Source: Candidatus Nomurabacteria bacterium RIFOXYD2_FULL_35_12 (GTDB lineage Bacteria; Patescibacteriota; Minisyncoccia; Phycocordibacterales; UBA9973). From it: a stretch of 64,000 bases of DNA. Below the pieces are notes generated by a model, which made no database searches, was not told the origin of the DNA, and was given only the letters and a program-made list of their open reading frames with translations. The DNA lies in the NCBI GenBank assembly GCA_001786365.1, contig MFWK01000022.1:15087-79086 (forward strand), given 5' to 3'. Both the position numbers and the translations under genes were made by a program. The stretch's first letter is position 1; the number at the start of each line of letters is the position of its first letter. Shown piece after piece: positions 39,752 through 62,302 of the stretch.

Positions 39752-40474
39752 TTATAATTTTTCTGGAATAATCAAAGCTACTGATTCCATCAAAGTTTTA
39801 GCTGAACTTCCCGGCATACGCAAAAACTCGCGAACTTTGAAAATATGCTCAAAAATTCTAGTGTCAAGGGGCATCCTTGACATCTTGCTATGTAAAACGG
39901 ATTCTAGTGTGTTTAAGAGCTTTAGGGCTTTTGAACGATTAGATTCTATACTTATTTCTTCCTCACTTTCCTCTTCTTTCTTTGGTAATAATTCTTTTAT
40001 AAAATCAATCCTTCTTTGCAAAGGCATATTTATAAATTTCTCCCCGACGTTTTCAGTCGGGGCCCCGACCTCTTCGAGCGTCGGGGCTGCCTTTATTAAA
40101 TAAAATCTAGAAACTAAAGTTTTTAAAAGAGTATTAATATCTGGCACCACAAGAAAAAAATGCGTATTTTCTATCGGCTCTTCAAACATTTTCAATAAAA
40201 CATTTTGCGCATCTAAAGAAAAACTATTTACACTAATCACAAATACTTTTTTAAAAGAAGAAAAAGCTTTGTTGGTAGACATTGAGCGTAAATCAAAAGC
40301 CTCATCAATTTTAAAATTATCTATCGAAATATGGCAAAAATCAGGATTGCCAGAAGTTTTTATATCTAAACTTTCACAAAATTCTAAAATCTCAGGCACA
40401 ACTTTTTCCCTATCTCCTTCTATGAGGTATGCATGATGCAAATTATCTTTATTTAAATGCCTAGCTAAGTTCAT
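39752..40474 (-). CDS. holB: DNA polymerase III delta-prime subunit-like clamp-loader protein
   Basis: 240 aa. HAYLIEGD...LLKMFEEP...VSRF pattern of HolB. Carries the in-frame family B element (APTLEEVGAPTENVG). Confidence 0.65.
   Translation of the reverse strand: MNLARHLNKDNLHHAYLIEGDREKVVPEILEFCESLDIKTSGNPDFCHISIDNFKIDEAFDLRSMSTNKAFSSFKKVFVISVNSFSLDAQNVLLKMFEEPIENTHFFLVVPDINTLLKTLVSRFYLIKAAPTLEEVGAPTENVGEKFINMPLQRRIDFIKELLPKKEEESEEEISIESNRSKALKLLNTLESVLHSKMSRMPLDTRIFEHIFKVREFLRMPGSSAKTLMESVALIIPEKL
40032..40076. repeat. Family B GC-rich double-hairpin element, copy B1 (in-frame inside holB)
   Basis: CCCCGACGTTTTCAGTCGGGGCCCCGACCTCTTCGAGCGTCGGGG: two tandem CCCGAC/GTCGGG hairpins, highly GC-rich. 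Confidence 0.75.
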
Positions 40475-40529
40475 AAAGTTATAAAGTTCTTAAGGTTGTA
40501 AAGTTTGAAAAATTAAATAGTTCTTAAGA

Positions 40530-40649
40530 AAAGCCTTGCGCAGGAGCTTAGAAAATAAATGAGGTAATCCGAATATTATTTTCTTGAGCGACGAGCAGTT
40601 CGCTGGCGAAGCTTCGCCAGATAGATTGCTTTTCGAGAGAAGCTATTTA
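40530..40649. repeat. Family F ~120-bp repeat, copy F1 (candidate structured RNA or MITE)
   Basis: AAAGCCTTGCGCAGGAGCTTAGAAAATAAA...TATTATTTTCTTGAGCGACGAGCAGTTCGCTGGCGAAGCTTCGCCAGATAGATTGCTTTT. About 90% identical to 48327..48445 and to the reverse complement of 61409..61511. Confidence 0.8.
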
Positions 40650-40662
40650 GTTTTTCAAAGAA

Positions 40663-41676
40663 CTACTTTTTGCTTAAAACTGTTTTTTTATACACGTCCA
40701 AATGATCGAGAGCTATACCTGTGCCTTTTACTACACAGAAAAGAGGATCCTCAGCCAAAGCAGCCTTTACTCCAGTCTTTCTATAAACCAAATCAGTGAA
40801 ATTTCGAAGTTGAGAAGAACCTCCAGTCATGATTATTCCTTGATCAATAATATCTGAGGCTAATTCTGGCGGAGTTTCTTGCAATACATCTTTGATAGCT
40901 TGAATTATTTGTTTTAGTTCTCCATCTATCGCTTTGACTATTTCATTTGTTCCCACTCGCGCTGACCTAGGCAAGCCTTGAATAAAATCCCTACCTTTTA
41001 TCGTCACACTGAGCTCTTCTTCTAAAAGCACCGCTGCACCGATTTTAATTTTTACTTCTTCGGCTGTCCTATCACCGATAGCTAAGTTAAAAGTTTTTTT
41101 AATATAATCAGCTATAGCGCCATCTATTTTATTTCCAGCGCACTTTACTGATTTAGAGGCCACAATTCCGCCAAGCGAAATGACTGCTACGTCTGTCGTG
41201 CCCCCACCTATGTCCACAACCATATGCCCTTTCGATTCATAAATTGGAATTCCCGCGCCGATGGCTGCTAAGATAGGCTCTTTGACTACATAAGCATTCT
41301 TTGCACCAGCGCGAATTGCAGCTTCTATGACTGCTCGCCTCTCTGTACTCGTGACTCCTGCAGGAACCGAAACCATCACATCCGGTTTGAAAAAATTAAA
41401 TTTCCCCATCGCTTTATTTATAAAATAACGAAGCATTGCCTCAGTCACACGATAATCTGCTATGACTCCATCTTTCATCGGGCAATAAGTAATGATAGAT
41501 TCTGGGGTCTTTCCAATCATATCTTTGGCTTCAAAACCAATAGCTAGAATTTTATTGTCTTGTTCAGAAACCGCTACAACAGAAGGCTCGTTTAGAATAA
41601 TTCCTTTTCCAGGTAAAAAGACCAAAGTATTGGCTGTTCCTAAATCTATGCCTAGTTTTTTCGTAAAAATACCCAT
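40663..41676 (-). CDS. mreB: Rod shape-determining protein MreB
   Basis: 337 aa. GIDLGTANTLV, DIGGGTTD actin-fold motifs. Confidence 0.9.
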   Translation of the reverse strand: MGIFTKKLGIDLGTANTLVFLPGKGIILNEPSVVAVSEQDNKILAIGFEAKDMIGKTPESIITYCPMKDGVIADYRVTEAMLRYFINKAMGKFNFFKPDVMVSVPAGVTSTERRAVIEAAIRAGAKNAYVVKEPILAAIGAGIPIYESKGHMVVDIGGGTTDVAVISLGGIVASKSVKCAGNKIDGAIADYIKKTFNLAIGDRTAEEVKIKIGAAVLLEEELSVTIKGRDFIQGLPRSARVGTNEIVKAIDGELKQIIQAIKDVLQETPPELASDIIDQGIIMTGGSSQLRNFTDLVYRKTGVKAALAEDPLFCVVKGTGIALDHLDVYKKTVLSKK

Positions 41677-41794
41677 CCCGTTTAGAAGCAGGTCGCGGTC
41701 AACAAACCTCGACTTTGCTTAGTTATGTTATTAAATTTTTTATCTTTTATAAACATGATTCTTATATAAAACTGCGACCGTGGCTTCTAACGGG
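41677..41794. repeat. Family A MITE-like element, copy A3
   Basis: CCCGTTTAGAAGCAGGTCGCGGTC...GCGACCGTGGCTTCTAACGGG. The left end directly abuts the mreB start codon (41676). Confidence 0.75.
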
Positions 41795-41836
41795 ACCCAT
41801 GAGCCTATGTTATCATATTTATGTTAAAATCAAAGA

Positions 41837-42172
41837 ATGGATGACGAAGAAAAAAATGATATAGAAAACAATCTCAAAAACCCATTTATAGGATATTTGG
41901 CAAATTTAAAGAAACATAAACAAGCCATAAACCCTGTTCATGAAATTGTAAATTGCTATTATAAAATGAATGGCTGGGAAAAAATGCCAAAAGATTTTTA
42001 TACCGGTAGATATGCTTATAATAAGCTCGCGAAAGAAGCAAAAATGCTCTACCAAGCTTGTAATGAAGTTTTAGATGATGCTATTTGGGCTTTAGACAAA
42101 ATGAAATACCTCGCCGAGAAAGGCAAATTCGACTGGTCTATAATCACCTGTTTGAAACACAAATTAAAATAG
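41837..42172 (+). CDS. Hypothetical protein
   Basis: 111 aa ORF, no recognisable motif. Confidence 0.3.
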   Translation: MDDEEKNDIENNLKNPFIGYLANLKKHKQAINPVHEIVNCYYKMNGWEKMPKDFYTGRYAYNKLAKEAKMLYQACNEVLDDAIWALDKMKYLAEKGKFDWSIITCLKHKLK

Positions 42173-42173
42173 T

Positions 42174-42878
42174 TTAAGAAACAATTACTGTAAATTCCCC
42201 TCTTTGCTTGTCAGGATTTTTATTGAAATATTCTAAAATTTCGTGTGGTAAACCAGTTTTAAATTCTTCATAGATTTTTGTCAATTCGCGAGCTACGCAG
42301 ACTTTTTTATGAGGGCAAAATTCAACAAGCGATGCTAATGTTTTTAAAATTCTGTGAGGAGATTCATAAAATACCATCGTGCGTTCAGAAATTGCTATTT
42401 CTTTAAATAAAGTTTCTCTGCCTTTCTTGTGCGGAAGAAAACCAAGAAAAGTAAATTCATGAATAGGCATTCCTGATGCAGAAAGCGCGGCAATAACGGC
42501 TGAAGCTCCAGGGATTGGAATCACTTGAACTTCTTCATTGGTAAATTTTTCTTTTATTCTAGAAACGAGCATTGAGCCCGGGTCTGATATTGTGGGAGTG
42601 CCAGCATCAGAAACCAATGCAACATTTTTCCCGTCGTATAATAATTTAAAAATTTTATCTAATTTCTCATTCTTTCCGAGTTTATAATCAGCTCCAGCTA
42701 CATCGTCAGACGGATAGCTCATCGTTTCTTTATTTATTTCATATTTATTTAAAATTTTCTTTGTCTCTCGCGTATCTTCACACAATATCAAATCCACGCT
42801 TTTAAGCGTCTCGATAGCTCGGAGTGTGATGTCTCCCATATTTCCTATCGGCGTCGCCACAACATAAAATTTAGACAT
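42174..42878 (-). CDS. rsmI: 16S rRNA (cytidine1402-2'-O)-methyltransferase
   Basis: 234 aa. FYVVATPIGNMGDITLRAIETLKSVDLILCEDTR tetrapyrrole-methylase fold of RsmI. Confidence 0.85.
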   Translation of the reverse strand: MSKFYVVATPIGNMGDITLRAIETLKSVDLILCEDTRETKKILNKYEINKETMSYPSDDVAGADYKLGKNEKLDKIFKLLYDGKNVALVSDAGTPTISDPGSMLVSRIKEKFTNEEVQVIPIPGASAVIAALSASGMPIHEFTFLGFLPHKKGRETLFKEIAISERTMVFYESPHRILKTLASLVEFCPHKKVCVARELTKIYEEFKTGLPHEILEYFNKNPDKQRGEFTVIVS

Positions 42879-42883
42879 AAATT

Positions 42884-43330
42884 TTATTTCCTATACTTTC
42901 TAGTTCTCCACTTGTCTGCAATCTTAACACGAGTGAGTGAACGTTCGAGTTCAGCTTCAAAATGCTCAAAGTCCACATGGTCTTTGTTTTCCATTTGTTT
43001 TTCCAATTCAATAGCACGAGCTTTTGCTTTTTCTATTTTTTCATCTGAAATTTCAGACACATGTTCGGCAAAGTCCGCCAAAATAGCGACTTCGGTAATT
43101 TTATTTTCACCTTGTTTTATTTCCATAAACCCTCCAGCAACTGCCATCGGAACATGTTCACCATTTACGACAGCCACAATATCTCCAGATGCAAGACCTG
43201 CAATGAGTGGAATATGTTCCGGCAAAATGGTTATCTCACCTTCCGTAGTAGGCAAAGTGACTTGATCTACCATTTCTTCCAGAACTAGTCTTTCTGGGGT
43301 GATTATTTTAAGTTTTAATTGTTTTGACAT
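42884..43330 (-). CDS. atpC: F1 ATP synthase epsilon subunit
   Basis: 148 aa. LKLKIITPERLVLEEMVDQVTLPTTEGEITILPEH... beta-sandwich plus C-terminal helices. Confidence 0.8.
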   Translation of the reverse strand: MSKQLKLKIITPERLVLEEMVDQVTLPTTEGEITILPEHIPLIAGLASGDIVAVVNGEHVPMAVAGGFMEIKQGENKITEVAILADFAEHVSEISDEKIEKAKARAIELEKQMENKDHVDFEHFEAELERSLTRVKIADKWRTRKYRK

Positions 43331-43455
43331 AAATTTTTGACTTTAAAATTTTTAAATAGTGCTTTTAAAAATCGTACGGAGGCCGACGGGCCGAAGTCTT
43401 AGCAAAAATTTAGTAAAATTTTATGCGGGTTTTTAAAAGTACCTATTTAAAAATT

Positions 43456-44856
<1,401 letters not shown>

Positions 44857-45861
44857 TTAACTTACACTTGCCATACCCGCACTGATTTCTGATATTTCCC
44901 TAGTAATGTTTCCCTGCCTTGCTTTATTGAACACCAGGGTCAGATCATCTATCATTTCTCCTGAAGCATCAGAAGCATTTTTCATTGCGACCATTCGACT
45001 CGACTGTTCAGAAGCATTTGATTCGAGCAACATTTGATAAATCTGCATCCTTGTAATCTTCTCCGCGAGTGACCCTATCAATGTGTTCATGTCTCCTTCT
45101 ATTAAATAACTTATACTTTTTTCTCTCCCGACGCTTTCGGTCGGGACTCCGACCTCTCCAGGCGTCGGAGCTAAATTGTTTATTAAATCTTGTAATTCTG
45201 TTTTAGATACAGGCAATATTTGTTTTATATTTGGCTTCTGATTTAAAGCGGAAATAAAATCAGTATAAGCTACTAAAACTTTATCGTAATGAAGAAGGAT
45301 ATATTCATCTATGGTAAATTTTGAAATTGGAACAACTTCTGTCAAAGAAATATTATTGCTCAAATCTGCAAAAGTGGCAACGACATTTACTCCGAGTCTG
45401 CGCATCGCCACATCTCCTTTTTTACCGACAGAAACAATATCTACCCCGTTAGAAGCAGGTCGCCCCGAGGTGACCGTAGCACTCTCGTGCTCGAGAGAGC
45501 GGCTTCTAACGGGGTCTAAATTTATGTTTTGACTTTTTAAAAATGAAATCGTTTTTTTAATAACTTGCGCATTATAAGATCCACACAAACCCCTGTTTGA
45601 TGTAATGAGCACAAGCAACACATTTGCTTTTACCCCACCTTTCTTTTCTCTTTCAGTAAAAAGTGGATGGGAATTCTCCTCTATATTTTTAGCTATTGAT
45701 GTAAGAACTTCCCACGAATATCCAGCATAAAGACGTGACGCCAAAGTAGAAGCCACCGCACGCTTCATCTTACTAGCAGCCACGAGCTCCATCGCTTTCG
45801 TGATTTTCTTTGTGTTCTTTACAGACTTTATGCGTCGTTTTATTTCTTTAGTTCCCGCCAT
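44857..45861 (-). CDS. atpG: F1 ATP synthase gamma subunit (with two in-frame repeat-element insertions)
   Basis: Conserved N-terminus MAGTKEIKRRIKSVKNTKKITKAMELVAASKMKRA at 45861 (the ORF track's upstream extension to 45954 is unlikely). Inserts encode LDPVRSRSLEHESATVTSGRPASNG (family A) and APTPGEVGVPTESVG (family B). Confidence 0.85.
   Translation of the reverse strand: MAGTKEIKRRIKSVKNTKKITKAMELVAASKMKRAVASTLASRLYAGYSWEVLTSIAKNIEENSHPLFTEREKKGGVKANVLLVLITSNRGLCGSYNAQVIKKTISFLKSQNINLDPVRSRSLEHESATVTSGRPASNGVDIVSVGKKGDVAMRRLGVNVVATFADLSNNISLTEVVPISKFTIDEYILLHYDKVLVAYTDFISALNQKPNIKQILPVSKTELQDLINNLAPTPGEVGVPTESVGREKSISYLIEGDMNTLIGSLAEKITRMQIYQMLLESNASEQSSRMVAMKNASDASGEMIDDLTLVFNKARQGNITREISEISAGMASVS
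45127..45168. repeat. Family B element, copy B2 (in-frame inside atpG)
   Basis: CCCGACGCTTTCGGTCGGGACTCCGACCTCTCCAGGCGTCGG. Same architecture and reading frame (A-P-T...VG..TE.VG) as B1 and B4. Confidence 0.75.
45444..45514. repeat. Family A element, copy A4 (in-frame inside atpG)
   Basis: CCCCGTTAGAAGCAGGTCGCCCCGAGGTGACCGTAGCACTCTCGTGCTCGAGAGAGCGGCTTCTAACGGGG. Termini match A1/A3, and the interior holds nested palindromes. Confidence 0.7.
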
Positions 45862-45922
45862 TTGATATTTCTTTTGCCTGTCCCGTACGAAGCTTTGCTT
45901 TCGTTCGGGATACCGGCCATAA

Positions 45923-47425
45923 TTATTTACTAAAACCCATCTTAAAATCACCAATTACTTTTTTTAATTCTACTTCGCCTTTATCTGTCCACATTTTGGA
46001 CTCTTTGATTTCTTTGTAGAAAGTTTTTGCATGACGCTCACTGTATTCTATAAGTCCTTGCTCAAATTCTTTTATTTTATCAATAGAAACATCATCCATA
46101 AGCCCTTTTGTGAGAGCATAAAGTGTAACAATTTGATTTTCAATTTTCATCGGAGAATATTGAAGTTGTTTCAAAACTTCCACAGCTCTTTTACCCCTTT
46201 CAAGTTGTTTCTTTGTAGATTCATCAAGGTCGGAACCGAATTGAGCAAATGCTTCAAGTTCGCGGAATTGCGCAAGGTCAAGCTTTAATGTTCCAGCCAC
46301 TTTTTTCATTCCTTTTATTTGCGCGCTAGAACCGACACGAGAAACAGAAAGACCGACGTTTACAGCCGGACGGATACCTTTATAGAAAAGATCTGTTTCC
46401 AAAAAGATTTGTCCATCGGTAATAGAAATAACGTTTGTCGGAATATAAGCAGACACGTCGCCAGCTTGCGTCTCCACTATCGGAAGCGCAGTGATAGAAC
46501 CACCGCCATATTTTGCATTTCTTCGGCAAGCGCGTTCTAGTAAACGAGAGTGTAAATAGAAAACATCTCCTGGATACGCTTCACGTCCTGGTGGTCGGCG
46601 GAGAAGAAGAGAAATTTCACGATATGCCACAGCATGTTTAGAAAGATCATCATAAATAATTAAAACATCTTTTCCTTGATCCATAAAATATTCCGCAATA
46701 GAAACTCCGGCATAAGGAGCAATATATGACATTGAAGCAGCTTCTGATGCTCCAGCTGAAACTATAACTGTATAATCCATAGCACCACCGGCTTCCAACC
46801 TTGCTCCTAATTTTCGAAGCTTGGAATCCTTTTGACCAATAGAAACATAAACGCAAATCATATTTTGACCCTTTTGATTTAAAATTGCATCGATAGCGAT
46901 AGCTGTCTTTCCTGTTTGTCTATCACCAATGATGAGCTCACGTTGACCACGGCCGATTGGAATAATGGCATCGATAACTTTGATACCGGTAGCAACCGCT
47001 TGGTCCACACTTTGTCTAGTGACAACTCCTGGAGCCACCTTTTCAATTGGATATGTTTTTGAGGCTTTGATTGCTCCTTTTCCATCAATCGGCGCACCAA
47101 TAGCATTTACCACTCTGCCTAAAATACTGTCTCCTACTGGTATTTCCAAAATTTTTCCGGTTGCTTTTACTTCATCTCCTTCTTTAATTTTTGAAAAGTC
47201 TCCTAGAATAATTACTCCGACTGCATCTTCTTCCAAATTGAGCGCCACACCGACTTCACCATTTGGAAAAGTCACCATTTCGGATGATTTGATATCGGAA
47301 AGTCCAGAAACCTTCGCAATACCATCAAAAACCTCTATTACTTGACCTACCTTTTCAACTTTTAATTGAAGTGAAAAATTATCTATCTCCTTTTTTAAAT
47401 TTTCTACTATTGTGTTGCTGTTCAT
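45923..47425 (-). CDS. atpA: F1 ATP synthase alpha subunit
   Basis: 500 aa. Walker A GDRQTGKT. Confidence 0.95.
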
Positions 47426-47829: not shown

Positions 47830-48290
47830 TATAAATTATTCAAGTCTTTTTTACTCCCAAGTATCTTTTCTGTAGCTTTCATCGCAATATCAACAATTTC
47901 TTTTCTTGCTGATTCGACTATGGCTTTTTTATCAATCTCCATTTGTATAATTCTTTTCTTATTCCATTCATCATTGTCTTTCTTTATCCTCTCGAGATTT
48001 TCTATTTTTAATTTTTCCAAGTCTTTTTGAAGTTCTTTTTGAGCATCTGCAGAAATTTTTCTAAGTTTAATTGTATTTTCCTTATATTCTTCGCCAGCTT
48101 TCTCTAATAATCCGTTGGCTTTTTTTGAATCAATTAAACCTTTCTTTATCTTTTCTGTACGCTCGGCCATCAACTTGCCTAGTGGCTTTAAAGCAAACAT
48201 ATACAAAACAACAAAGACAATAATAAAATTTATCGCTTGAGCGATGATAATTTTCCAGTCTATGTGAAATGTAGAAATAATTGAATCCAT
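47829..48290 (-). CDS. atpF: Fo ATP synthase subunit b
   Basis: 153 aa. Single N-terminal TM helix then a long charged coiled coil. Confidence 0.75.
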   Translation of the reverse strand: MDSIISTFHIDWKIIIAQAINFIIVFVVLYMFALKPLGKLMAERTEKIKKGLIDSKKANGLLEKAGEEYKENTIKLRKISADAQKELQKDLEKLKIENLERIKKDNDEWNKKRIIQMEIDKKAIVESARKEIVDIAMKATEKILGSKKDLNNL

Positions 48291-48326
48291 TGTTTTTATT
48301 TAAAAAAATTAAAATAGTTCTTTTTA

Positions 48327-48445
48327 AAAGCCTTGCGCAGGAGCTTAGAAAATAAAAATGGTATTCCATTTATTATTTTCTTGAGCGACGAGCAGTTCGC
48401 TGGCAAAGCTTTGCCAGATAGATTGCTTTTTAAAAGAAGCTATTT
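48327..48445. repeat. Family F ~120-bp repeat, copy F2 (between atpE and atpF)
   Basis: Same sequence as F1. Its central palindrome reads CTGGCAAAGCTTTGCCAG here. Confidence 0.8.
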
Positions 48446-48457
48446 TAAATTTTCAAA

Positions 48458-48735
<278 letters not shown>

Positions 48736-48771
48736 TTAATAATAATAATTTCGACTAATAATTTATAATAA

Positions 48772-49662
48772 TCACACTGATACTACCACATTTTCTTCAT
48801 GCTTTTCATGCTCATCATGTGCATCATGATCCGTGGCTGAAATTGTAAAATAAACAACCAAAAGCATTGAAAATATGAGAGCTTGAATGACTCCAACCAA
48901 TATTTCTAAAAATACGAATGGAATAGGTAAAATATAAGCAAAAATGGCTGCCATTGACGCCAAAAGGACTTCTCCGGCAAAAACGTTACCAAAAAGTCGG
49001 AACGACAATGATGCTATTTTTGCAAACTCACCGACAAGCTCGAGTAGACCGACAAAGAACGTGATTGGGGCGACAATAATTATCGTTTTGTCTTTTTTTA
49101 TCTTCGTAAATATCTGCCCCAGCGCTTTTAGATTAACATACTTGTTAAAAATTTTCCATATACCGATTGAAAAAATACCGAACAAATTTGCTCCAATAAC
49201 AGCCATGATGGCGAGAGCAATAGTGGTGTTCACATCGGCTGTGCCACCACGAAGAAATGGGATAAAAGCTAAACCGTGTTCACCTTTTTCTAAAAGTCCT
49301 AAACCACCGATCGGTAAAAGCCCTAGCCAATTGTTTATAAGAATAAAAAAGAAAACGGAAATAGCTATTGGAAAAACGATAACTGAGAGTGACCTATTGT
49401 TTGTCACTTGATCACATAGATCAAGCGCGCCTTCTACAACAATTTCAAAAACATTTTGTAAAACATTTGGAACTTCTTTTAATTTTTTTCGTAAAATTAC
49501 AGCAAGAATTATTATTATCAAAACTGCTAACCAGCTCGTGACGAGAGCATTTGTAAAAGTAAAATTATTTGTATGAAAAACAGGTTCTGCAAAAAGAGTA
49601 GTCTCGTAACTAATTTCCCCTCCTGTTTCTGTATTTACGTTTATTTCTTTTGCTTCTATCAT
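48772..49662 (-). CDS. atpB: Fo ATP synthase subunit a
   Basis: 296 aa polytopic membrane protein. Conserved Arg context LSFRLFGNVFAGE. Confidence 0.85.
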   Translation of the reverse strand: MIEAKEINVNTETGGEISYETTLFAEPVFHTNNFTFTNALVTSWLAVLIIIILAVILRKKLKEVPNVLQNVFEIVVEGALDLCDQVTNNRSLSVIVFPIAISVFFFILINNWLGLLPIGGLGLLEKGEHGLAFIPFLRGGTADVNTTIALAIMAVIGANLFGIFSIGIWKIFNKYVNLKALGQIFTKIKKDKTIIIVAPITFFVGLLELVGEFAKIASLSFRLFGNVFAGEVLLASMAAIFAYILPIPFVFLEILVGVIQALIFSMLLVVYFTISATDHDAHDEHEKHEENVVVSV

Positions 49663-50766: not shown

Positions 50767-50890
50767 AAAAACTGTTTAAAAAACTATAACAGAAAATATT
50801 GAGTAAAGCAAAATTCCCCTCACCCCTTGCTTTCCCCTCTCCATTTTAAAAATAAATGGAGAGGGGTTGGGGAGAGGAAAGAGATTAAAC

Positions 50891-54158: not shown

Positions 54159-54190
54159 AGCTTTTATTATACCATAATTTTATAAAATTT

Positions 54191-54916
54191 TTACTTCTTT
54201 TCTGCCTTCTTTTCCCCGCCTGCAACGCTATGCGCAGCATTGCGGGCAGGTTCTTTAGCTGGTGTGGTGGTGGCTGGTTCTGCTCCAGGCACTCCTTCTT
54301 CTTCTTTCTTGCCTTTCTTCTCTACTTCAATAGCGGACAAATCAGGAGCAACTACGACTTCTTCTTTTTCTTCAACTTGAGCAACGACAGAAGCTACGAC
54401 ATCGCCTGTATTTGTGATGACGACGACTCCGGATGGCAATTTTATATCAGAAACGAAAACGTTATTATCCAAGGTTTCAAGTTTTGAAATATCTACAACT
54501 AAATTGTGCGGTAAATCTGCAGGCAAAGCTTCGATTTCTATTTCATGAAGAACTTTCACAAGATTTCCAATACCACTCTTTACCGCATTTGAAATACCTT
54601 CGAATACAAGAGGAACCTTGACTCGAATTTTCTTTTTCATATCAATAACCAAAAAATCCACATGGATTGGCTCATCGGTGACTGGGTCTACTTGCACTTC
54701 ATGAATAAGAGCATTCACATCGCCAGCAGGAGTAGAAATCTTGATAGCAGAAGACTCTCCGGCATCTCGCCAGATTTTCTTGAATTCAACGATAGAAAGT
54801 GTTACAGATGTGGTCTTTTCCCCTGCTCCGTAAAAAACAGCTGGGATTTTCCCAGACTTTCTCAAAACACCCAATTTTGTATCTAAATCTCTTTTATCAG
54901 CTTTAATTACAAACAT
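54191..54916 (-). CDS. rplY: 50S ribosomal protein L25 / general stress protein Ctc (with C-terminal repeat-containing tail)
   Basis: Conserved start MFVIKADKRDLDTKLGVLRKSGKIPAVFYG at 54916 (the ORF track's 54976 start is probably too far upstream). The C-terminal tail ...EPARNAAHSVAGGEKKAEKK is encoded by the family C element. Confidence 0.75.
   Translation of the reverse strand: MFVIKADKRDLDTKLGVLRKSGKIPAVFYGAGEKTTSVTLSIVEFKKIWRDAGESSAIKISTPAGDVNALIHEVQVDPVTDEPIHVDFLVIDMKKKIRVKVPLVFEGISNAVKSGIGNLVKVLHEIEIEALPADLPHNLVVDISKLETLDNNVFVSDIKLPSGVVVITNTGDVVASVVAQVEEKEEVVVAPDLSAIEVEKKGKKEEEGVPGAEPATTTPAKEPARNAAHSVAGGEKKAEKK
54214..54250. repeat. Family C element, copy C2 (in-frame at 3' end of rplY)
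   Basis: CCCCGCCTGCAACGCTATGCGCAGCATTGCGGGCAGG: 35 of 37 positions identical to C1, same frame (PARNA.HSVAGGE). Confidence 0.7.
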
Positions 54917-56126: not shown

Positions 56127-56135
56127 ATTCATTAA

Positions 56136-57650
56136 TTATTTAAGTAAATCTATTAAGACCTGTTTTGTCACAGCCGGATTTGCAGAACCTTTTGTTTCTT
56201 TCATTATCTGACCGACGAGAGACATGAGTGCCTGTTCTTTACCACCCTTGTAGTCAGCAACAACTTTCGGACTAGCGTCAATAATCTTTTTTGCAATTTC
56301 TTTCAACGCTCCAGTATCGCTACTCTGAAGAAGGTTTTTCTCTGTCGCGATTTTCATCGGTGATTCATCTTTGCTATTAGTTTTTTTTGCAATCATCGCT
56401 AAAATATCTTTTGCCACGCGAGAAGAAATTTTATTTTCTGAAACAAGATTTATTAATTCTGCAAAATTTCCAACAGACGGCAGTTTTACCTCGCTTTTTG
56501 CTCTGAGTCCTATAAAATCTGTCGTAACATAATTAGACGCTATCTTTATTTGATCCTTATTTTTCAAAATTTTAGCCACTTCTTCAAACCAAGCTCCCAA
56601 ACTAGGCTCATTTATATAGCTTTCTATGTCTTCATCTTTTATTCCAAAATCTTTCTTGTATCTTGCACGTTTTGCCTGTGGAAGTTCTGGTAATTCTTTT
56701 TCAATTTTTTCTAAGTCAAATGCTTCGTGTAATTTCATCTTTGGCAAATCGGGTTCTGGAAAATATCTATAGTCTGCGCTTCCCTCTTTTTTTCTCTGAG
56801 AAAAAGTTTTTTGTTTACCATCATCCCAACCTCGAGTTTCCTGCACTATTTCTGAGCCTTTGCCTTCTTCTACTAATTTTATCATCCGATCGACTTCGTA
56901 TTTTATAGCTCGTTCAACGCTTCGGAAAGAATTTAAATTCTTTACTTCTACTTTTGTGCCTAATTTTTTTAGATCCGTAGAAACAGAAATGTTTGCTTCC
57001 ACGCGCATTTCACCTTTCTCCATATTCGCTTCGGAAACTCCAAGATACCAAAGTATAAGCTGGAGTTCTTTGGCAAATTTTGTCGAGCCTTTTGCCGCTT
57101 CTTCATCACTTTGAAAAGTTGTCGCTTCTGTCACAAGCTCCATCAAAGGTATACCTGCTCTGTTAAAGTCTACTAAACTATATCCGCCACGGTCACCTGC
57201 CCCGTACCGAGCTTGCTCTGGTTCGGGGTGCTTGTTGTTTGCTGTGTCTTCTTCCAAATGCACGCGAGTTATGTCAAAATCTGCCAAATGTCCACCAGAA
57301 ACTATTGGAAATTTATATTGAGAAATCTGATAACCTTTTGGAATATCCGGATAAAAATAATTCTTACGATCAAATTCCGTAAAGTCCGCAATTTTTCCAT
57401 CTACCGCCAAGCCGACTTTTATAACATTTTCTATCGCTTTTTTATTTATAACTGGCAAAGCTCCCGGATGCGCCATGCAAACTGGGCAGACATTTACGTT
57501 TGGCTTTTCTTCATCTGGGTCATTCTTGCAACCACAAAACATTTTTGTATTTGTCGAAAGTTCCGCATGTATTTCTAAACCAATTGTCGGGTAATACTTT
57601 TTTTCCATTATTAAAATAATAGCATATTTATAAAATATAATGAATTCCAC
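56136..57650 (-). CDS. gatB: Asp-tRNA(Asn)/Glu-tRNA(Gln) amidotransferase subunit B
   Basis: 504 aa. YYPTIGLEIHAELSTNTKMFCGC... C-terminal YqeY-like domain. Confidence 0.9.
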   Translation of the reverse strand: MEFIIFYKYAIILIMEKKYYPTIGLEIHAELSTNTKMFCGCKNDPDEEKPNVNVCPVCMAHPGALPVINKKAIENVIKVGLAVDGKIADFTEFDRKNYFYPDIPKGYQISQYKFPIVSGGHLADFDITRVHLEEDTANNKHPEPEQARYGAGDRGGYSLVDFNRAGIPLMELVTEATTFQSDEEAAKGSTKFAKELQLILWYLGVSEANMEKGEMRVEANISVSTDLKKLGTKVEVKNLNSFRSVERAIKYEVDRMIKLVEEGKGSEIVQETRGWDDGKQKTFSQRKKEGSADYRYFPEPDLPKMKLHEAFDLEKIEKELPELPQAKRARYKKDFGIKDEDIESYINEPSLGAWFEEVAKILKNKDQIKIASNYVTTDFIGLRAKSEVKLPSVGNFAELINLVSENKISSRVAKDILAMIAKKTNSKDESPMKIATEKNLLQSSDTGALKEIAKKIIDASPKVVADYKGGKEQALMSLVGQIMKETKGSANPAVTKQVLIDLLK

Positions 57651-57670
57651 AAATATAGATTGTTAATTTA

Positions 57671-57710
57671 TCTACCATCTAGAACATATGTAAAAGTTAG
57701 TAGAAATAAT
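57671..57710. promoter_or_regulatory. Promoter-like ~30-bp motif (TTTACA-N17-ATAAAT on minus strand), copy 1, upstream of gatB
   Basis: TAGAACATATGTAAAAGTTAGTAGAAATAAT is repeated directly (2 mismatches) at 58315..58353. On the minus strand it reads TTTCTACTAACTTTTACATATGTTCTA and lies ~35-60 nt 5' of the gatB ATG. Confidence 0.4.
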
Positions 57711-57715
57711 ATAAC

Positions 57716-58285
57716 TTAACTTTTTGATTTCAAAGTTCCATTTTTTGTAACTTCCAAGATTTCCACATAATCTAAAATGCCTAGCTTGCTTAAATCAGTA
57801 ATAAATCTTTCAGGTAGCTCTACCTTGCCCACCCAAACACTCTTGTGAACTAAATTAAAATCAAGCATTTGCAACATACCTCTTAAAATATTTCTCTCTC
57901 TATTGAAAGAAACTGGGATATCATAACTAATTACCACAACCTTATTTCCTAATTTTGATTTATATAAATCCTTATTTAAGGAAAAAGAATTTTGAAAATT
58001 ATTTAATTTATGTTTTCCTTTTTCGCTCAAATAAATTTGATTTAAGTCATTTTTAAAAATCAACCCTTCACTTTTTAATTTGGACAAATATTTTTTTAAC
58101 TTATCCATTTTCTGTTTGTCTAATTGTAAATTTATTCTTTTGTTTTGTATTTTTGAAAACTCGTATCTTATTTTATTACTCGTTGCGCCATATCCTGCTT
58201 GTAAAAAAGAATTTGCAAAATCAACATAATCAATCACTTCATCACCCAATAAATTAAAAATTTTATAAATAATTTCTCCTTTCAT
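57716..58285 (-). CDS. Hypothetical protein (flanked by the 30-bp direct repeats)
   Basis: 189 aa, no recognisable motif. Confidence 0.3.
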   Translation of the reverse strand: MKGEIIYKIFNLLGDEVIDYVDFANSFLQAGYGATSNKIRYEFSKIQNKRINLQLDKQKMDKLKKYLSKLKSEGLIFKNDLNQIYLSEKGKHKLNNFQNSFSLNKDLYKSKLGNKVVVISYDIPVSFNRERNILRGMLQMLDFNLVHKSVWVGKVELPERFITDLSKLGILDYVEILEVTKNGTLKSKS

Positions 58286-58314
58286 GCCATATATTATACA
58301 TCATAATTAATATT

Positions 58315-58353
58315 CTACTAATTTAGACATATGTAAAAGATAGTAGAAAATAT
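58315..58353. promoter_or_regulatory. Promoter-like ~30-bp motif, copy 2, upstream of the 57716..58285 gene
   Basis: TAGACATATGTAAAAGATAGTAGAAAATAT, a direct repeat of 57671..57710. Confidence 0.4.
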
Positions 58354-58394
58354 TTAATTTATTTTTTAAAAAATTTAATTACATAAAAAGAAAA

Positions 58395-58422
58395 TCGCCC
58401 CGGCTGGAGTGTCGGGGCGACA
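58395..58422 (-). terminator. Rho-independent terminator (TCGCCCCG-loop-CGGGGCGA + T-tract on minus strand), preceded by a second hairpin CTCGC-GCAGG-GCGAG
   Basis: Inverted repeat TCGCCCCGGCTGGAGTGTCGGGGCGA. The minus-strand reading is followed by TTTTCTTTTT. Lies 3' of the 58455..58802 gene. Confidence 0.6.
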
Positions 58423-58454
58423 ATCTCCTCGCGCAGGGCGAGATACAACATGAT

Positions 58455-58802
58455 TCATGACTGAACATACAGAGCTCCTTTCTCAAGGAGACCAGGAAGC
58501 TCTTTTTTACAGCAGTAGCATCTGAAAGATGAGCCAGCTCGAATAGTGTTGAGATTTCCACATTCCGAACAAGCTTCGCACTCCTCCAGGAAAAGGATTG
58601 GGTATGTTTGCCAAGCGTTCAAGAACACCCCAACAAGTGCACGGTCTATGATGAAATAAAGTGACGCTTCAGGTATGAAGCCTTCCCTGTCCACTTCCTT
58701 CATCATTCGATCCCAAGCTACCTTGATACTTTCCTGCGCTAATCCCCACTCTCGCAAAAAGTATAACAGACTCATTGCGTGATATGACATAGGATACGAC
58801 AT
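58455..58802 (-). CDS. Hypothetical protein with C-terminal CxxC...CxxC motif, encoded in a GC-rich island
   Basis: 115 aa. ...EECEACSECGNLNTIRAGSSFRCYCCKKE... Local GC ~45-50%, own terminator. ORF 58379..58561 overlaps and is probably spurious. Confidence 0.35.
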   Translation of the reverse strand: MSYPMSYHAMSLLYFLREWGLAQESIKVAWDRMMKEVDREGFIPEASLYFIIDRALVGVFLNAWQTYPILFLEECEACSECGNLNTIRAGSSFRCYCCKKELPGLLEKGALYVQS

Positions 58803-58904
58803 AAAGTTTGCTCCTTCCGTATTTTGATTTAACTTGTGAACACCTAAACTAAAAAAGATTATATCACAAATATAAGAGGTTGTCTATAAAAATATGGGGA
58901 AAAT

Positions 58905-59915
58905 TTACGCTTTCTTTAGAATCTTTACTAACGAGTCACTGAATTTTTTTACCATTTTGTCATCAAACAGAGAAAGAATAAAAACGTTCTTGCTGATTTT
59001 TTTGAAATCTGCTACTTTTTTAGCGATAATTTTAGCATCATTAACAAAATCAGATTTAGTTAAAATAATTATTTCTTCTTTTACAGACAAACCTTCATTA
59101 CCCAAGCCCAAAGTCTTGTCGTATTTTTCCAATTCTTTCCGTATTTCTTTATAACTTTTCATCATACCAGTAGAACCTTTAGAAAGATTTTCAAAAGAAA
59201 TGAGGTGCGCAATCATTTTCGTTCGTTTAATATGACGCAAGAATTTCACACCGAGGCCCTTGCCTTCTGAAGCCCCTTCAATGAGCCCAGGAATGTCCGC
59301 AATGATGTAACCATGAAAATCCCCCAAGTTTGGATCGAGCGTAGTAAAAGGATAATCTCCAACTTTTGCATCTGCATTTGTCAGTGCATTTAATAAAGAA
59401 GATTTACCCGCATTTGGAAGTCCAATAAAACCAATATCAGCAAAAAGCTCCAGCTCTATTTTAAAATCTCCTTTTTCACCAGGCCCACCGACATTTGATT
59501 CTTGTGGAGTCGTATTTACGGAACTTTTAAAATGTTCATTTCCAAAACCACCGAAACCACCCCTCAAGAGAAGAATCTTTTCTCCTTCTTTCATTAATTG
59601 CCATTTTTCATCAGTTGCAAGATTTGTAATAATAGAGCCAACAGGTAATTCTAAAATAAAATCTTGCCCATTTGCTCCATGCAAGCTCTTGCTTCCGCCG
59701 TCTTCCCCTCTGCCAGCAATAAAACTTTTCTTGGCTTTATATTTTAAAAGTATGTGCACGTCGCGGACAGCTTGCACATAAAAATTCCCGCCTCGTCCGG
59801 CATCTCCTCCGGCCGGGCCACCTTTTGGCTCAAATTTCTGCCTGTGCCACCTGACAACACCGTTTCCACCGGCTCCAGCTTCTGCATATATTTTAATTTC
59901 ATCAATGAATGCCAT
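58905..59915 (-). CDS. obg: GTPase Obg/CgtA
   Basis: 336 aa. Obg fold MAFIDEIKIYAEAGAGGNGVVRWHRQKF...; G1 GLPNAGKSS; G3 DIPG. Confidence 0.9.
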   Translation of the reverse strand: MAFIDEIKIYAEAGAGGNGVVRWHRQKFEPKGGPAGGDAGRGGNFYVQAVRDVHILLKYKAKKSFIAGRGEDGGSKSLHGANGQDFILELPVGSIITNLATDEKWQLMKEGEKILLLRGGFGGFGNEHFKSSVNTTPQESNVGGPGEKGDFKIELELFADIGFIGLPNAGKSSLLNALTNADAKVGDYPFTTLDPNLGDFHGYIIADIPGLIEGASEGKGLGVKFLRHIKRTKMIAHLISFENLSKGSTGMMKSYKEIRKELEKYDKTLGLGNEGLSVKEEIIILTKSDFVNDAKIIAKKVADFKKISKNVFILSLFDDKMVKKFSDSLVKILKKA

Positions 59916-59948
59916 ATGAAAAGTATAAAAATGAAAAATTAAGGAGCC

Positions 59949-59980
59949 GTGGGTTCCCTGTCCTTATGACCTCGAGGGCG
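59949..59980. repeat. Family D 32-nt repeat, copy D2 (reverse orientation)
   Basis: GTGGGTTCCCTGTCCTTATGACCTCGAGGGCG is the exact reverse complement of 17281..17312. Confidence 0.7.
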
Positions 59981-60016
59981 AAGGTGGGAGAATTTTTTAT
60001 TTTTACATTTTTCATA

Positions 60017-60916
60017 TTAACCTAATAATGCCAATTCTGCTAATTTAATTGCCCCTTCTTTTGATTTTGCGACTGCAAGAAAAAGCGCCCGATGACAGAA
60101 TACCGCATCCTTTACTCCTGTTATTTTTTGCAAATCTTCATATGAATATCCACCCCAAGAAACAGGAAAGTCCTTCCTATTTCCAAAACTACTTTTGCTT
60201 TTCCTCATAGATACAACAGACCAATCATCTTTATCACCATAAACTACAAAAAGGGGTTCTTCAAAGTCTTGCAACGCATCCCAAATCTCAAATCTAGAAA
60301 CCTTTGGCTTGTCTATAACGATAAGCCTCTTGTCTTCCGACTTTTTATAATAACCTTTAATAATTTTTGTGATTTCTATTTGATCACTTGCTCTTTTAAT
60401 TTCTCTCTTTAAAATTTCTTTCGCCCACACCAACACTTTCAAAAACTGCTTGTCTTTCTCTACATCCTCTAATGCAGTCGGAGAAAAAATAGAAAAAACA
60501 TCCTGTAAAGTATATGGGAAAATATTCGAAAAATTACTCTTATACAAATCGATTCCGTTATCATTTGCATCCACCGGCATCACTAGTTTACGTTCAATCA
60601 CATCTGCGACTTCTTTACTACCGGAGATTTCTTTGCCAAATTTTTTCCAAATAAGACCAAAAGACGAATAAGGTATACCCTCCCTTTCACCTGCTCCGCC
60701 CTTCTGATGATGATCAAATCTATTTAGATCTTCACTATATATTCTTCCCACATCAAAGACATAATCTCCACTTTTTTTAATCTCAATATCTCTCGTGCGA
60801 ATTATTTTAAAATTCTCACCTCGATTCTCAAGCATGATTAAAAGCGTCGCAGCCGCAAAAATATCATCGGGGTGAAACGAACCATCATGTGTTACTAATT
60901 TTGTCAGTTTTTTCAT
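60017..60916 (-). CDS. MYG1/UPF0160-family metal-dependent hydrolase
   Basis: 299 aa. THDGSFHPDDIFAAATL N-terminal motif typical of MYG1. Confidence 0.65.
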   Translation of the reverse strand: MKKLTKLVTHDGSFHPDDIFAAATLLIMLENRGENFKIIRTRDIEIKKSGDYVFDVGRIYSEDLNRFDHHQKGGAGEREGIPYSSFGLIWKKFGKEISGSKEVADVIERKLVMPVDANDNGIDLYKSNFSNIFPYTLQDVFSIFSPTALEDVEKDKQFLKVLVWAKEILKREIKRASDQIEITKIIKGYYKKSEDKRLIVIDKPKVSRFEIWDALQDFEEPLFVVYGDKDDWSVVSMRKSKSSFGNRKDFPVSWGGYSYEDLQKITGVKDAVFCHRALFLAVAKSKEGAIKLAELALLG

Positions 60917-60930
60917 CCAAGTGCAAAAAT

Positions 60931-61380
60931 TTAAAATAATGAATCTACGACTTCTTTGACCAAAGTGCCATCCGCTTTACCTTTTAATTCTTTCATAACA
61001 GCAGACATCAACATACCCTTTTTTGTGGCATCAGTAATTGCAAGCTCGGCCTTTTTTGCTTTGGCGACCTTTTCAATATCTCCTTTGCTCATCATTTTCG
61101 GAAGATAAGTTTCTAGAATGGAAAGTTCTGCTTGTTCTTCTTTTACCAAGTCTTCTCTATTTCCTTTTTTGAACTGTTCAATAGAATCCTTGCGTTGCTT
61201 GGCGAGCCTATTTATCACAGCTAAAGCTTCTTCATCTTTGAGCATTTCTTGAGGCTTTTTATTTTTTGCTACAAGCTCATTTGTAAAAGCTGCAGACATA
61301 GCCCGAAATGCTTTCAGCTTTAATGCATCGTGTGCCATCATCGCTTCTTTTATTCCATTTTTTATTTGTTCGTGTAACAT
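60931..61380 (-). CDS. GatB/YqeY-domain protein
   Basis: 149 aa. MLHEQIKNGIKEAMMAHDALKLKAFRAMSAAFTNELV... is YqeY-like. Confidence 0.7.
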   Translation of the reverse strand: MLHEQIKNGIKEAMMAHDALKLKAFRAMSAAFTNELVAKNKKPQEMLKDEEALAVINRLAKQRKDSIEQFKKGNREDLVKEEQAELSILETYLPKMMSKGDIEKVAKAKKAELAITDATKKGMLMSAVMKELKGKADGTLVKEVVDSLF

Positions 61381-61408
61381 AAATTTATATAGGAATATCT
61401 ATTTTTAT

Positions 61409-61511
61409 AAAGCAATCTATCTGGGCAAGCTTGCCCAGCGAACTGCTCGTCGCTCAAGAAAATAATAAATAGAATACTATTTTTATTTTCTAAGCTCCTG
61501 CGCAAGGCTTT
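61409..61511. repeat. Family F ~120-bp repeat, copy F3 (reverse orientation, between divergent genes)
   Basis: Reverse complement matches F1/F2. The central palindrome here is CTGGGCAAGCTTGCCCAG. Confidence 0.8.
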
Positions 61512-61564
61512 CTAAAAACAATATTCCTATATAAATTATAACAGAATTGTGTTAAAATAGCACT

Positions 61565-62302
61565 ATGTCTAAATTAATATTTTTTGATACAGAAACCACC
61601 GGTAATACAGACAAAGATTTTCTTTGTCAGATTGCTTACAAAACAGATAAAGAAACTTTTACAGGCTTATATAAACCAGAAATCAAAATCCCTCCGGAAG
61701 CTTCTGCTGTGCATCACCTAACGAATAAAATGCTTACTGATAAACCCTCTTTTAAAGATTCCGGTGATCAGCAAAAAATCAAAAAACTTTTTGAAGATAA
61801 AGATTCAGTAGTTGTAGCTCACAACGCACCTTTTGACTTGATAATGATAAAAAAAGAAGGCATTGAGCCTAAAAAATTCATCTGCACCCTACGAGTCGCC
61901 AGACATTTAGATAAAGAAGAAAAAATAGAAAGATATAATTTACAATATTTGCGTTACTTGCTCGAAATAGAAGTAGATGCCACAGCTCACGACGCACTCG
62001 GTGACGTGCTCGTATTGGAACAACTTTTTGAAAGGCTATATAAAAAAGTGAAAGAAGAAATAGCCCCGACGTCTAAAGGAGTCGGGGTCACGACCGAAAA
62101 CGTCGTGAATAAAATGATAGAAATTTCCTCGCACCCCTCCCTTTTGCGTTCTTTTGGTTTTGGTAAACATAACGGTAAAAGAATAGAAGAAGTGGCAAAA
62201 ATGGATAGAGGTTATCTGGAGTGGCTCCTAGCCCAAAAACTCGCGGGAGACCAAATGGACGAGGATTGGATTTATACCTTGAAGCATTACTTAGATAAAT
62301 AA
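61565..62302 (+). CDS. DnaQ-like 3'-5' exonuclease (DEDDh) with C-terminal extension
   Basis: 245 aa. Exo I FFDTETTG, Exo II VAHNAPFD, Exo III HDALGD. The extension includes in-frame family B element B4 (APTSKGVGVTTENVV). Confidence 0.75.
   Translation: MSKLIFFDTETTGNTDKDFLCQIAYKTDKETFTGLYKPEIKIPPEASAVHHLTNKMLTDKPSFKDSGDQQKIKKLFEDKDSVVVAHNAPFDLIMIKKEGIEPKKFICTLRVARHLDKEEKIERYNLQYLRYLLEIEVDATAHDALGDVLVLEQLFERLYKKVKEEIAPTSKGVGVTTENVVNKMIEISSHPSLLRSFGFGKHNGKRIEEVAKMDRGYLEWLLAQKLAGDQMDEDWIYTLKHYLDK
62065..62107. repeat. Family B element, copy B4 (in-frame inside the dnaQ-like gene)
   Basis: CCCCGACGTCTAAAGGAGTCGGGGTCACGACCGAAAACGTCGTG. Confidence 0.7.

Follow-up and report, generated by a model that had tools for sequence, protein, structure and literature searches.

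A probable mobile family of CCGAC double hairpins with in-frame copies in genes of Candidate Phyla Radiation bacteria

Introduction

Rickettsia palindromic elements (RPEs) are palindromic repeats of a reduced genome that lie in frame in unrelated housekeeping genes, at permissive positions, and also occur as intergenic copies (PMC10969869; PMC3733652). Repetitive extragenic palindromes (REPs) are GC-rich hairpins of 20-40 nt with an unpaired GTAG tag, usually arranged as inverted doublets; intragenic REPs are also known, and occasional in-frame copies encode 20-30 amino acids, frequently in genes for replication or repair (Di Nocera et al. 2013, PMC3733652). Here we analyze a 64-kb stretch of a Candidatus Nomurabacteria genome (contig MFWK01000022.1, hereafter the window), which contains four copies of a short GC-rich double hairpin that we call the CCGAC element after its stem core. 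An earlier note on this DNA had likened the copies to RPEs, and the analogy is apt. We put at about 0.68 the probability that the element represents a mobile REP/RPE-like double-hairpin family with in-frame copies. [quoted passage not shown]

CPR genomes are regarded as streamlined and repeat-poor. The GC clusters of yeast mitochondria and the double-hairpin elements of Allomyces and other mitochondrial genomes (PMC4478555, PMC2800124) are short GC-rich mobile hairpins of AT-rich compact genomes, found in spacers and sometimes in frame. IS200/IS605 insertion sequences move as single strands by 'peel and paste'; they have subterminal hairpins at both ends and insert 3' of a tetra- or pentanucleotide, with no target duplication and with a strand bias. 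The DNA uptake sequences (DUS) and uptake signal sequences (USS) of Neisseria and Pasteurellaceae occur about once per kb and are recognized as sequence, not as hairpin. CPR bacteria are naturally competent, and dprA is present in the window.

Results

Four double hairpins in the window

The four copies that had been picked out from the sequence alone were all recovered. Their limits, given with the full 7-bp stems, are as follows.

40042..40086, minus strand, 45 nt: copy in the holB-like gene, in frame, coding
45126..45170, minus strand, 45 nt: copy in atpG, in frame, coding
48695..48735, minus strand, 41 nt: copy in the atpB/atpE spacer, intergenic
62064..62108, plus strand, 45 nt: copy in the ExoX/DnaQ-like exonuclease gene, in frame, coding

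Three of the intervals in the earlier note agree with these to within 1-2 nt, while the first, 40032-40076, lay about 10 nt too far to the left. The pattern CCGAC-N4-12-GTCGG-N4-CCGAC-N3-12-GTCGG is present at three sites, compared to 0.00 expected from 100 dinucleotide shuffles, and the exoX copy departs from it solely through a compensated ACGAC/GTCGT second stem. There are no further CCGAC-type hairpins in the window. Folded as single-stranded DNA (ssDNA), the four copies reach -12.6 to -16.8 kcal/mol (z = -3.0 to -5.2). The zero expectation speaks against a chance origin, and because two independent assemblies, from ENA and JGI, match the window without a difference over 17-21 kb, the copies are no assembly artefact.

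The identity of the host genes, including the dnaQ-like exonuclease, was confirmed by Pfam, as was the position of the fourth copy between atpB and atpE, for which translations and Pfam labels agree.

39752..40474, minus strand: holB-like clamp-loader subunit, 240 aa; Pfam PF13177 DNA_pol3_delta2, 2.7e-17
44857..45861, minus strand: atpG, F1 gamma subunit, 334 aa; Pfam PF00231, 4.2e-79
48458-48676, minus strand: atpE, flanking the intergenic copy
48772-49662, minus strand: atpB, flanking the intergenic copy
61565..62302, plus strand: ExoX/DnaQ-like 3'-5' exonuclease, 245 aa; Pfam PF00929 (RNase_T) and PF20600 (ExoX-like_C)

The atpG start is the ATG chosen by other gene callers; the open frame reaches 45954. 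AtpG is 100% identical to that of Candidatus Nomurabacteria bacterium RIFOXYC2_FULL_36_19 from Rifle groundwater, and the organism is thus of the CPR type that had been supposed.

On the sense strand, the holB copy reads CCCCGAC-GCTCGAAGAG-GTCGGGG, directly followed by CCCCGAC-TGAAAAC-GTCGGGG, and encodes the peptide (A)APTLEEVGAPTENVG. The stems of the atpG copy are CTCCGAC/GTCGGAG and TCCCGAC/GTCGGGA, with the peptide APTPGEVGVPTESVG, and the second stem of the exoX copy is the compensated variant TCACGAC/GTCGTGA, with the peptide APTSKGVGVTTENVV. These translations had been given correctly: all three coding copies are read in a single frame and face the same way with respect to their genes, giving APT...VG.PT...VG. 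The orientation of the intergenic copy to its operon, judged by loop similarity, matches that of the coding copies.

All three peptides lie in inter-domain linkers or loops, as had been expected. The holB copy directly follows the DNA_pol3_delta2 domain (residues 37-128), and the exoX copy is located between the RNase_T (5-153) and ExoX-like_C (197-224) domains. The atpG copy falls in residues 227-250, a segment unaligned to solved gamma subunits, which have 4 residues where this AtpG has 24. In a low-confidence AlphaFold model (21-sequence alignment, mean predicted local distance difference test score 54), used for secondary-structure placement only, it lies in a predicted coil (231-257) before the C-terminal helix.

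A family spread over the CPR

The element is not a peculiarity of one genome. A scan with an exact pattern, covering one genome per species, returned at least 119 stretches, and among the matches listed 102 are labelled CPR by title, 7 are unclassified and 10 carry other labels. The CPR carriers among these matches are Saccharibacteria, Nomura-, Kaiser-, Adler-, Taylor-, Wolfe-, Yanofsky-, Zambryski-, Lipton-, Nealson-, Doudna-, Berkel- and Brennerbacteria, Paceibacterota and Minisyncoccia. Two of the ten matches with other labels are chance matches in 71%-GC DNA, while the others have all four basal pairs intact. Bona fide copies outside the CPR label include L032 (Chitinophagaceae, on a 1.5-Mb contig), L063 (the isolate Terrimonas pollutisoli), L035, L076 and L119 (metagenome-assembled genomes, MAGs, labelled 'Gammaproteobacteria'), L073 and L112; they reflect either horizontal spread or, for short MAG contigs, mis-binning. 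In 2.9 million viral contigs of IMG/VR there was no genuine copy and no strict match, and the 25 relaxed matches were rejected as high-GC chance matches or tandem repeats with unpaired basal positions. The density of the element is uneven. The window has four copies in 64 kb, i.e. at most one per 16 kb, and related DNA amounting to about 182 kb, obtained for other purposes, has perfect copies in the ExoX linker only.

The family unit of 36-48 nt is formed by two directly abutting hairpins with 7-bp stems, NNCCGAC-loop-GTCGGNN. The five apical pairs CCGAC/GTCGG are nearly invariant, which in the scanned sample is partly so by construction because the pattern fixes most core bases; the two basal pairs covary, and the loops of 4-12 nt are free. 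When the neighbouring hairpin was sought without sequence constraint, it had CCGAC in 238 of 253 cases, and the rare variants were compensated (CCGAT/ATCGG, ACGAC/GTCGT). The doublet is of the REP type, its second hairpin repeating the first in inverted form, and in some copies one loop is the exact reverse complement of the other. Hairpins nearly always come as doublets, with about 10 solos.

At the basal positions, which the pattern leaves unfixed, 94% and 98% of pairs are Watson-Crick, compared to about 47% in shuffles. All four pair types occur (C-G, T-A, A-T, G-C), and wobble accounts for 6 of 516 basal cells. Over 21 copies, the tandem-hairpin model gives 96.4% paired positions and a covariation of 0.296 vs. 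0.075 in shuffles (0/500). The alternative of one long nested hairpin (arms 1 and 4 outer, 2 and 3 inner) gives 83.7% and 0.041 (498/500), with nested pairing of the basal positions at or below chance, and was rejected; the nested fold is nonetheless the minimum-energy fold of the atpG and intergenic copies.

Filled and empty sites

That the copies are lineage-specific insertions, as had been proposed, is borne out by comparison with relatives. The closest syntenic contigs, L003 (AtpG 92% identical) and L005, are without all three comparable copies. The holB copy is missing in both; between atpB and atpE, 41 nt have been inserted cleanly at TTAA|TTAA when L003 is taken as the reference, and nothing is duplicated; and the atpG copy splits a GGA codon (G^GA) that L003 keeps. 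In the ExoX linker, further filled and empty pairs are available: the insertions measure 36 nt in L163, L157 and L199 and 45 nt in L196, and each lies inside a G^AA codon of an otherwise 25-codon linker. The supposed simple addition of 15 aa did not hold. Net gains in the window genome are 5 aa in holB, 8 aa in atpG and 7 aa in exoX, lower than 15 because adjacent A-rich linker codons are missing.

For each of AtpG, ExoX and HolB the 120 nearest orthologues were compared. Most have a plain Lys/Glu-rich linker with no element, and the carriers are dispersed over the tree with varying loop lengths (4/4, 7/7, 10/7). The three linkers are recurrent hot spots for the CCGAC element, and in other lineages they also hold several unrelated palindrome-derived peptides. 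In different lineages, AtpG, HolB and ExoX repeatedly have one sub-type, with 4/4 loops and the peptide VPTEVGIPTxVG. The holB copy is also present in orthologues P0242 and P0250. The exoX copy, including its variant ACGAC/GTCGT stem, is common to about 25 orthologues (78-83% identity) that share an adjacent loss of 8-9 codons; this private stem and the shared codon loss mark it as old and vertically inherited.

Could the segments be ancestral, and lost in some lineages, or a product of chance or assembly? The age of the exoX copy within its clade and the similar peptides at the same loops of AtpG, HolB and ExoX orthologues elsewhere are in line with ancestry. For the family as a whole, however, this explanation is already contradicted by the scattered carriers, the clean filled and empty sites and the short loop of the solved gamma subunits, and together with chance and artefact we consider it very improbable.

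Equal flanks were seen in 3 of 129 copies, which is chance level, and the clean pairs also show no target-site duplication. A palindromic target or target-site duplication was rejected, and a classical MITE, with terminal inverted repeats and target-site duplication, does not agree with this flank identity. On the sense strand, the 5' motifs of the window copies are GCAG^, TTAG^, ATAG^ and TTAA^, and the family-wide consensus of the left outer flank is T-Y-A-R, corresponding to insertion 3' of a TAG/CAG/TAA-like motif.

Copies inside genes

About 40% of the copies (48-53 of 132) lie within long open reading frames (ORFs), as do three of the four in the window. The 48 that are well inside ORFs of at least 150 aa were taken as the coding-like set. 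Their length is divisible by three in 38 of 48 cases, vs. 30 of the 84 others (p = 2e-6), and both hairpins are read in the Pro-Thr/Val-Gly (PT/PT) frame in 18 of 48, vs. 1/9 expected (p = 2e-6). Other recurring frames give SRRPxGSGSRP and, in Lys-rich tails, PRRKVGxPTKASG. The statement that the frame is always the same therefore holds for the three window copies and not across the family, where frame usage is a strong bias, not a rule. Host proteins across the family include SecA, EF-G, IF-2, NusA, UvrA, UvrB, several aminoacyl-tRNA synthetases, the class II aldolase (FBA), Def, RsmA and RsmH.

A selected peptide module, i.e. an APTxxxVG linker whose DNA likeness is a by-product of protein convergence or domain shuffling, would account for one peptide type recurring in unrelated proteins and always in linkers. 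It is excluded by the intergenic copies with the same DNA, by the other reading frames used in other proteins, by the covariation of the basal stem pairs and by fourfold-degenerate sites that are invariant and occupied by G or C in a gene whose fourfold sites have 42% GC (see below).

In the coding direction the longer loop comes first in 30 copies and second in 7, and the loops are A-rich on the sense strand. GC skew in the window tracks gene strand, being positive at plus-strand genes (8-10 kb, 20-24 kb and 62-64 kb); since it merely follows gene strand, the direction of replication is not inferable from it, and orientation to replication and to transcription are inseparable here. Gene orientation changes at 61380/61565.

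This orientation bias is one of the observations that could point to a role in mRNA, as a stabilizer or processing site in operons (atpB/atpE, tRNA leaders) or as a pause site at domain boundaries that aids co-translational folding. All three coding copies of the window lie exactly between domains, and intergenic copies are found inside operons and 13-84 nt upstream of tRNAs, hence in leaders if transcribed. However, G.U is not favored over A.C on the sense strand (G.T 3 and A.C 7 among 1274 pairs, small numbers with no wobble preference), in addition to the high Watson-Crick fraction of the basal pairs, and this scarcity of wobble hints at a requirement at the level of DNA rather than RNA. 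The reverse complement of the element gives the same stems, so that orientation should count little, and A-rich loops may be explained by strand composition and selection for hydrophilic residues. Moreover, a U/T tract, as expected of an intrinsic terminator, is absent 3' of the element, where the profile is Y-T-R-A followed by unbiased bases, and Rfam matches in the window are four tRNAs only at the gathering threshold, with none at E <= 1 in 48250-48800. We regard a role at the level of mRNA as possible but less favored and, on balance, quite unlikely.

Constraint on the stems

Synonymous sites were compared in six ExoX orthologues with DNA sequence. At fourfold-degenerate sites, 7 of 7 stem columns are invariant, compared to 3 of 34 elsewhere in the gene (Fisher p = 5e-6). 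Pairwise identity at these sites is 97% in the stems and 35% elsewhere, loops diverge freely, and G or C occupies 57 of 58 stem sites vs. 42% elsewhere. The stems are therefore constrained at the nucleotide level at an orthologous site, and the copy-specific ACGAC/GTCGT variant argues against homogenization from other copies. In HolB orthologues, 5 of 8 fourfold stem sites are invariant vs. 8 of 36 elsewhere, and HolB of L239 shows a compensatory C-G to T-A stem change via two synonymous substitutions. A Yanofskybacterium and a Saccharibacterium have the element at the same site of FBA, with identity at 9 of 10 fourfold stem sites vs. 30 of 90, although these may be independent insertions.

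A dead insert would not be expected to keep its stems so constant. As far as sequence comparison can tell, the constraint would stem from a DNA-level role, or from a DNA-level cost of imperfect hairpins, and not from the peptide, and the element appears to be more than tolerated junk. The description as selfish DNA that is merely tolerated, which the earlier note had adopted, is accordingly too simple in view of the invariant ExoX sites.

These data bring in an explanation in which the double hairpin is primarily a host-maintained DNA signal in cis, which a conserved CPR protein would bind or process as hairpin or cruciform DNA, for instance in replication, supercoiling, transformation or recombination. 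Its copies would be dispersed over the chromosome and, with hardly any intergenic room in these genomes, would be forced into coding linkers, and mobility would come second. It fits the stem constraint at orthologous sites, the near-invariant 5-bp core over CPR classes, the strict Watson-Crick pairing, the constant doublet architecture and the lack of copies in viral contigs. On the other hand, the density is low and very uneven: the window has four copies in 64 kb, the 182 kb of related DNA has none beyond the ExoX linker, and the syntenic L003 has none; close relatives manage with these sites empty; a candidate binding protein was not found; and repeated independent insertions in permissive loops resemble mutational flux filtered by selection. 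A hairpin function at the host level is a live and non-exclusive alternative. As the primary explanation we consider it possible, though on the unlikely side.

Association with tRNA genes

Twenty of 132 copies (15%) lie within 100 nt of a tRNA gene, whereas 2.6% of the sequence is so placed (p = 3e-10), and 15 of these 20 are on the 5' side of the tRNA. At no fewer than 12 loci in different genomes, the 15-25 nt with which the adjacent tRNA begins are exactly duplicated nearby, and the element sits inside this duplicate (L013, L026, L031, L041, L047, L051, L055, L062, L076, L101, L102 and L119). The order is tRNA nt 1-10, ending in GTAG, then the hairpins, then nt 11 to about 20, followed by a spacer of 5-60 nt and the intact tRNA; in some tRNA loci the break comes after nt 15 (GCTCAG^TTGG). 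The break point agrees with insertion 3' of TAG/CAG. Upstream copies of the tRNA 5' end were found at 12 of 81 tRNAs, 10 of them with the CCGAC element and one with a CCGCC-type hairpin pair. In L054, CCGCC-type hairpins lie inside a duplicated tRNA-Ser 5' fragment upstream of tRNA-Ser, as in the CCGAC family.

Insertion inside functional tRNA genes was rejected, since excision (within 2 nt on either side) never restores a tRNA detected by ARAGORN and only the 5' fragment is duplicated. A tandem duplication of the upstream region with the tRNA start was likewise rejected, the spacers being unlike the sequence upstream of the fragment.

Other palindromic repeats and neighboring genes

Several other palindromes are present in the window. 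A 75-bp element (CCCCGTTAGAAGC...GCTTCTAACGGGG) at 45440-45516, unrelated to the CCGAC element, has inserted cleanly and in frame into atpG, adding 25 codons when compared with L003 and L005, with TAGA on both sides; orthologues P0003 and P0005 have it at the same site. Its half-copies are at 20561-20595, 41674-41700 and 41772-41805 (topA 5' end, just upstream of mreB and mreB upstream spacer, respectively). A 47-bp palindrome (CCCCGCCTGCAACGC..GCATTGCGGGCAGG), with copies 94% identical at 36720-36766 and 54211-54257, is in frame in an M50 peptidase and in ribosomal protein L25/Ctc. It encodes PARNA.xSVAGGE, a peptide type also seen in HolB and AtpG orthologues of other lineages (P0273, P0279, P0101). 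A double hairpin with a CCGCC/GGCGG core is in frame in a gene for a thiamine pyrophosphate-dependent enzyme (30847-30893), and topA has a single CCGCC hairpin (20637-20670).

A repeat of about 125-140 bp (83-89% identical) occupies three spacers, at 40508-40648, 48305-48445 and, inverted, 61394-61525, each time at a distance of 250-550 bp from a CCGAC element. The palindrome inside this repeat, GCTGGCGAAGCTTCGCCAG, varies between copies with compensation, and the repeat has no Rfam match; the mreB-holB spacer that holds one copy in the window is just 3 bp in L003. A pair of 50-nt inverted repeats, 88% complementary, lies in non-coding spacers 42.6 kb apart (17263-17312 and 59949-59998), the first arm within a larger local palindrome (17250-17343). 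A GC-rich palindrome (CCCCTCTCCATTT...AAATGGAGAGGGG) at about 50830-50890 is located some 60 nt upstream of tRNA-Ile, and AtpG loops of other lineages contain peptides that resemble the translation of this type (SPTPLL..ERGEGV).

Three paralogous ORFs for cysteine-rich proteins of 560-583 aa with CxxC zinc-ribbon-like ends are found at 34418-36169, at 38054-39736 and, partial, near 1-1300. The copy at 38054-39736 is missing from L003 and L005. They have no Pfam, NCBIfam or PDB match above threshold; as trans-acting factors, the paralogues beside holB were set aside, with sub-threshold treble-clef zinc-finger matches only. In the Nomurabacteria-like relative L126, a gene for a 23S-rRNA-intervening-sequence protein (PF05635; 4068-4475) lies between atpG and atpD.

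Discussion

The CCGAC element resembles RPEs in that it is also found in frame in unrelated genes and in intergenic copies. RPEs, as described, are about 100-150 bp long, restricted to Rickettsia, divided into several families and encode long peptides, whereas the CCGAC element has 36-48 nt and is superphylum-wide; neither constraint at synonymous sites nor a link to tRNA 5' fragments is reported for RPEs. With REPs and REPINs it shares a stable hairpin with a covarying stem and the inverted doublet. The tag is a weak likeness: REPs have GTAG, the CCGAC element T-Y-A-R with G at the first tag position (-6) in 12 of 129 copies (about 9%), and the exact GTAG in tRNA-linked copies is the tRNA's own U8-A9-G10 context. 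REPs are mostly extragenic, which the CCGAC copies in long ORFs are not, and the CCGAC stems and loops are unlike the published GTAG or CGTC families as described in PMC3733652.

Likeness to IS200/IS605 is one of mechanistic analogy only: both have a pair of similar hairpins on one strand, an insertion point just 3' of a short motif without target duplication, an orientation bias and strict DNA-type pairing. Unlike the ends of these insertion sequences, the CCGAC hairpins abut with no cargo between them, and no tnpA or longer parent was seen. The GC clusters and double hairpins of mitochondria are organellar with unrelated sequences, and nothing suggests common descent. DUS and USS are also short conserved motifs that occur in coding DNA, with frame and position biases and conservation at orthologous sites, but they are far denser than the CCGAC element, whose stem positions, moreover, covary.

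How could such an element spread? New copies enter precisely, without target duplication, just 3' of a TAG/CAG/TAA-like motif, landing in spacers, especially beside tRNA genes, and in coding DNA. The genic copies that survive mostly have a length divisible by three, lie in linkers or loops and are read in a frame that suits the local protein, mostly Ala-Pro-Thr...Val-Gly and, in basic tails, Arg/Lys-rich. After insertion, the stems are kept constant at synonymous sites over long divergence. The two identical hairpins, the insertion just 3' of a short motif, the lack of any duplication and the strictness of Watson-Crick pairing suggest mobilization as ssDNA, which could be carried out in trans by a hairpin-recognizing enzyme such as an IS200/IS605- or RAYT-like HUH/Y1 transposase or a functional analogue. 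Taken alone, this enzyme and the single-strand mechanism are a tentative proposal by analogy.

Several observations weigh against a mobile family. We found no transposase, integrase or HUH domain among the window ORFs of at least 110 aa, and a phmmer search with IS608 TnpA and E. coli RAYT probes, a weak negative, detected no Y1 transposase and no cognate RAYT in 5905 ORFs from about 1 Mb of element-bearing loci. An autonomous parent element was not found in the sequence examined. The 5-bp core, deeply conserved across the CPR apart from the share of its invariance that the scan pattern imposes, needs a conserved recognizer or frequent horizontal spread, and viral copies are absent. The coding copies of the window are not simple additions, the neighboring linker codons being gone, and the duplicated tRNA 5' fragments fit no standard transposition chemistry. 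Finally, purifying selection on one orthologous copy is unexpected for a purely selfish, decaying insert and suggests an effect at the host level. A composite transposon was also considered and rejected, as loci in which two copies lie some 2 kb from each other contain ordinary genes (tuf-rpsJ-rplC, rpsB-tsf, pth-hisS) and lack a transposase.

A combined reading can also be put forward. The double hairpin could be a conserved, host-relevant DNA signal of the CPR, bound by a CPR-wide hairpin-binding protein (possibly a domesticated HUH/Y1 enzyme) and under purifying selection even in essential genes, which copies itself 3' of TAG/CAG, including U8-A9-G10 of tRNAs, with a coupled duplication of the tRNA 5' end. 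We regard this combination as doubtful.

The interest of the CCGAC family lies in its breadth, in the constraint on its stems and in its association with tRNA fragments. The element repeatedly adds 12-16 residues to SecA, EF-G, IF-2, ATP synthase, the clamp loader and aminoacyl-tRNA synthetases, and the family would be a general source of lineage-specific insertions in CPR proteins. It could serve as a practical marker for binning and for dating lineages, and it calls for caution when genes are annotated and structures predicted. Given the constraint on synonymous sites of the stems, whether the element is selfish or functional can be tested directly, and the duplicated 5' fragments of tRNAs point to a chemistry of insertion or repair without a described counterpart among REPs, RPEs and MITEs. 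Experimental handles may be provided by a cultured Terrimonas isolate and by Saccharibacteria, both of which have copies.

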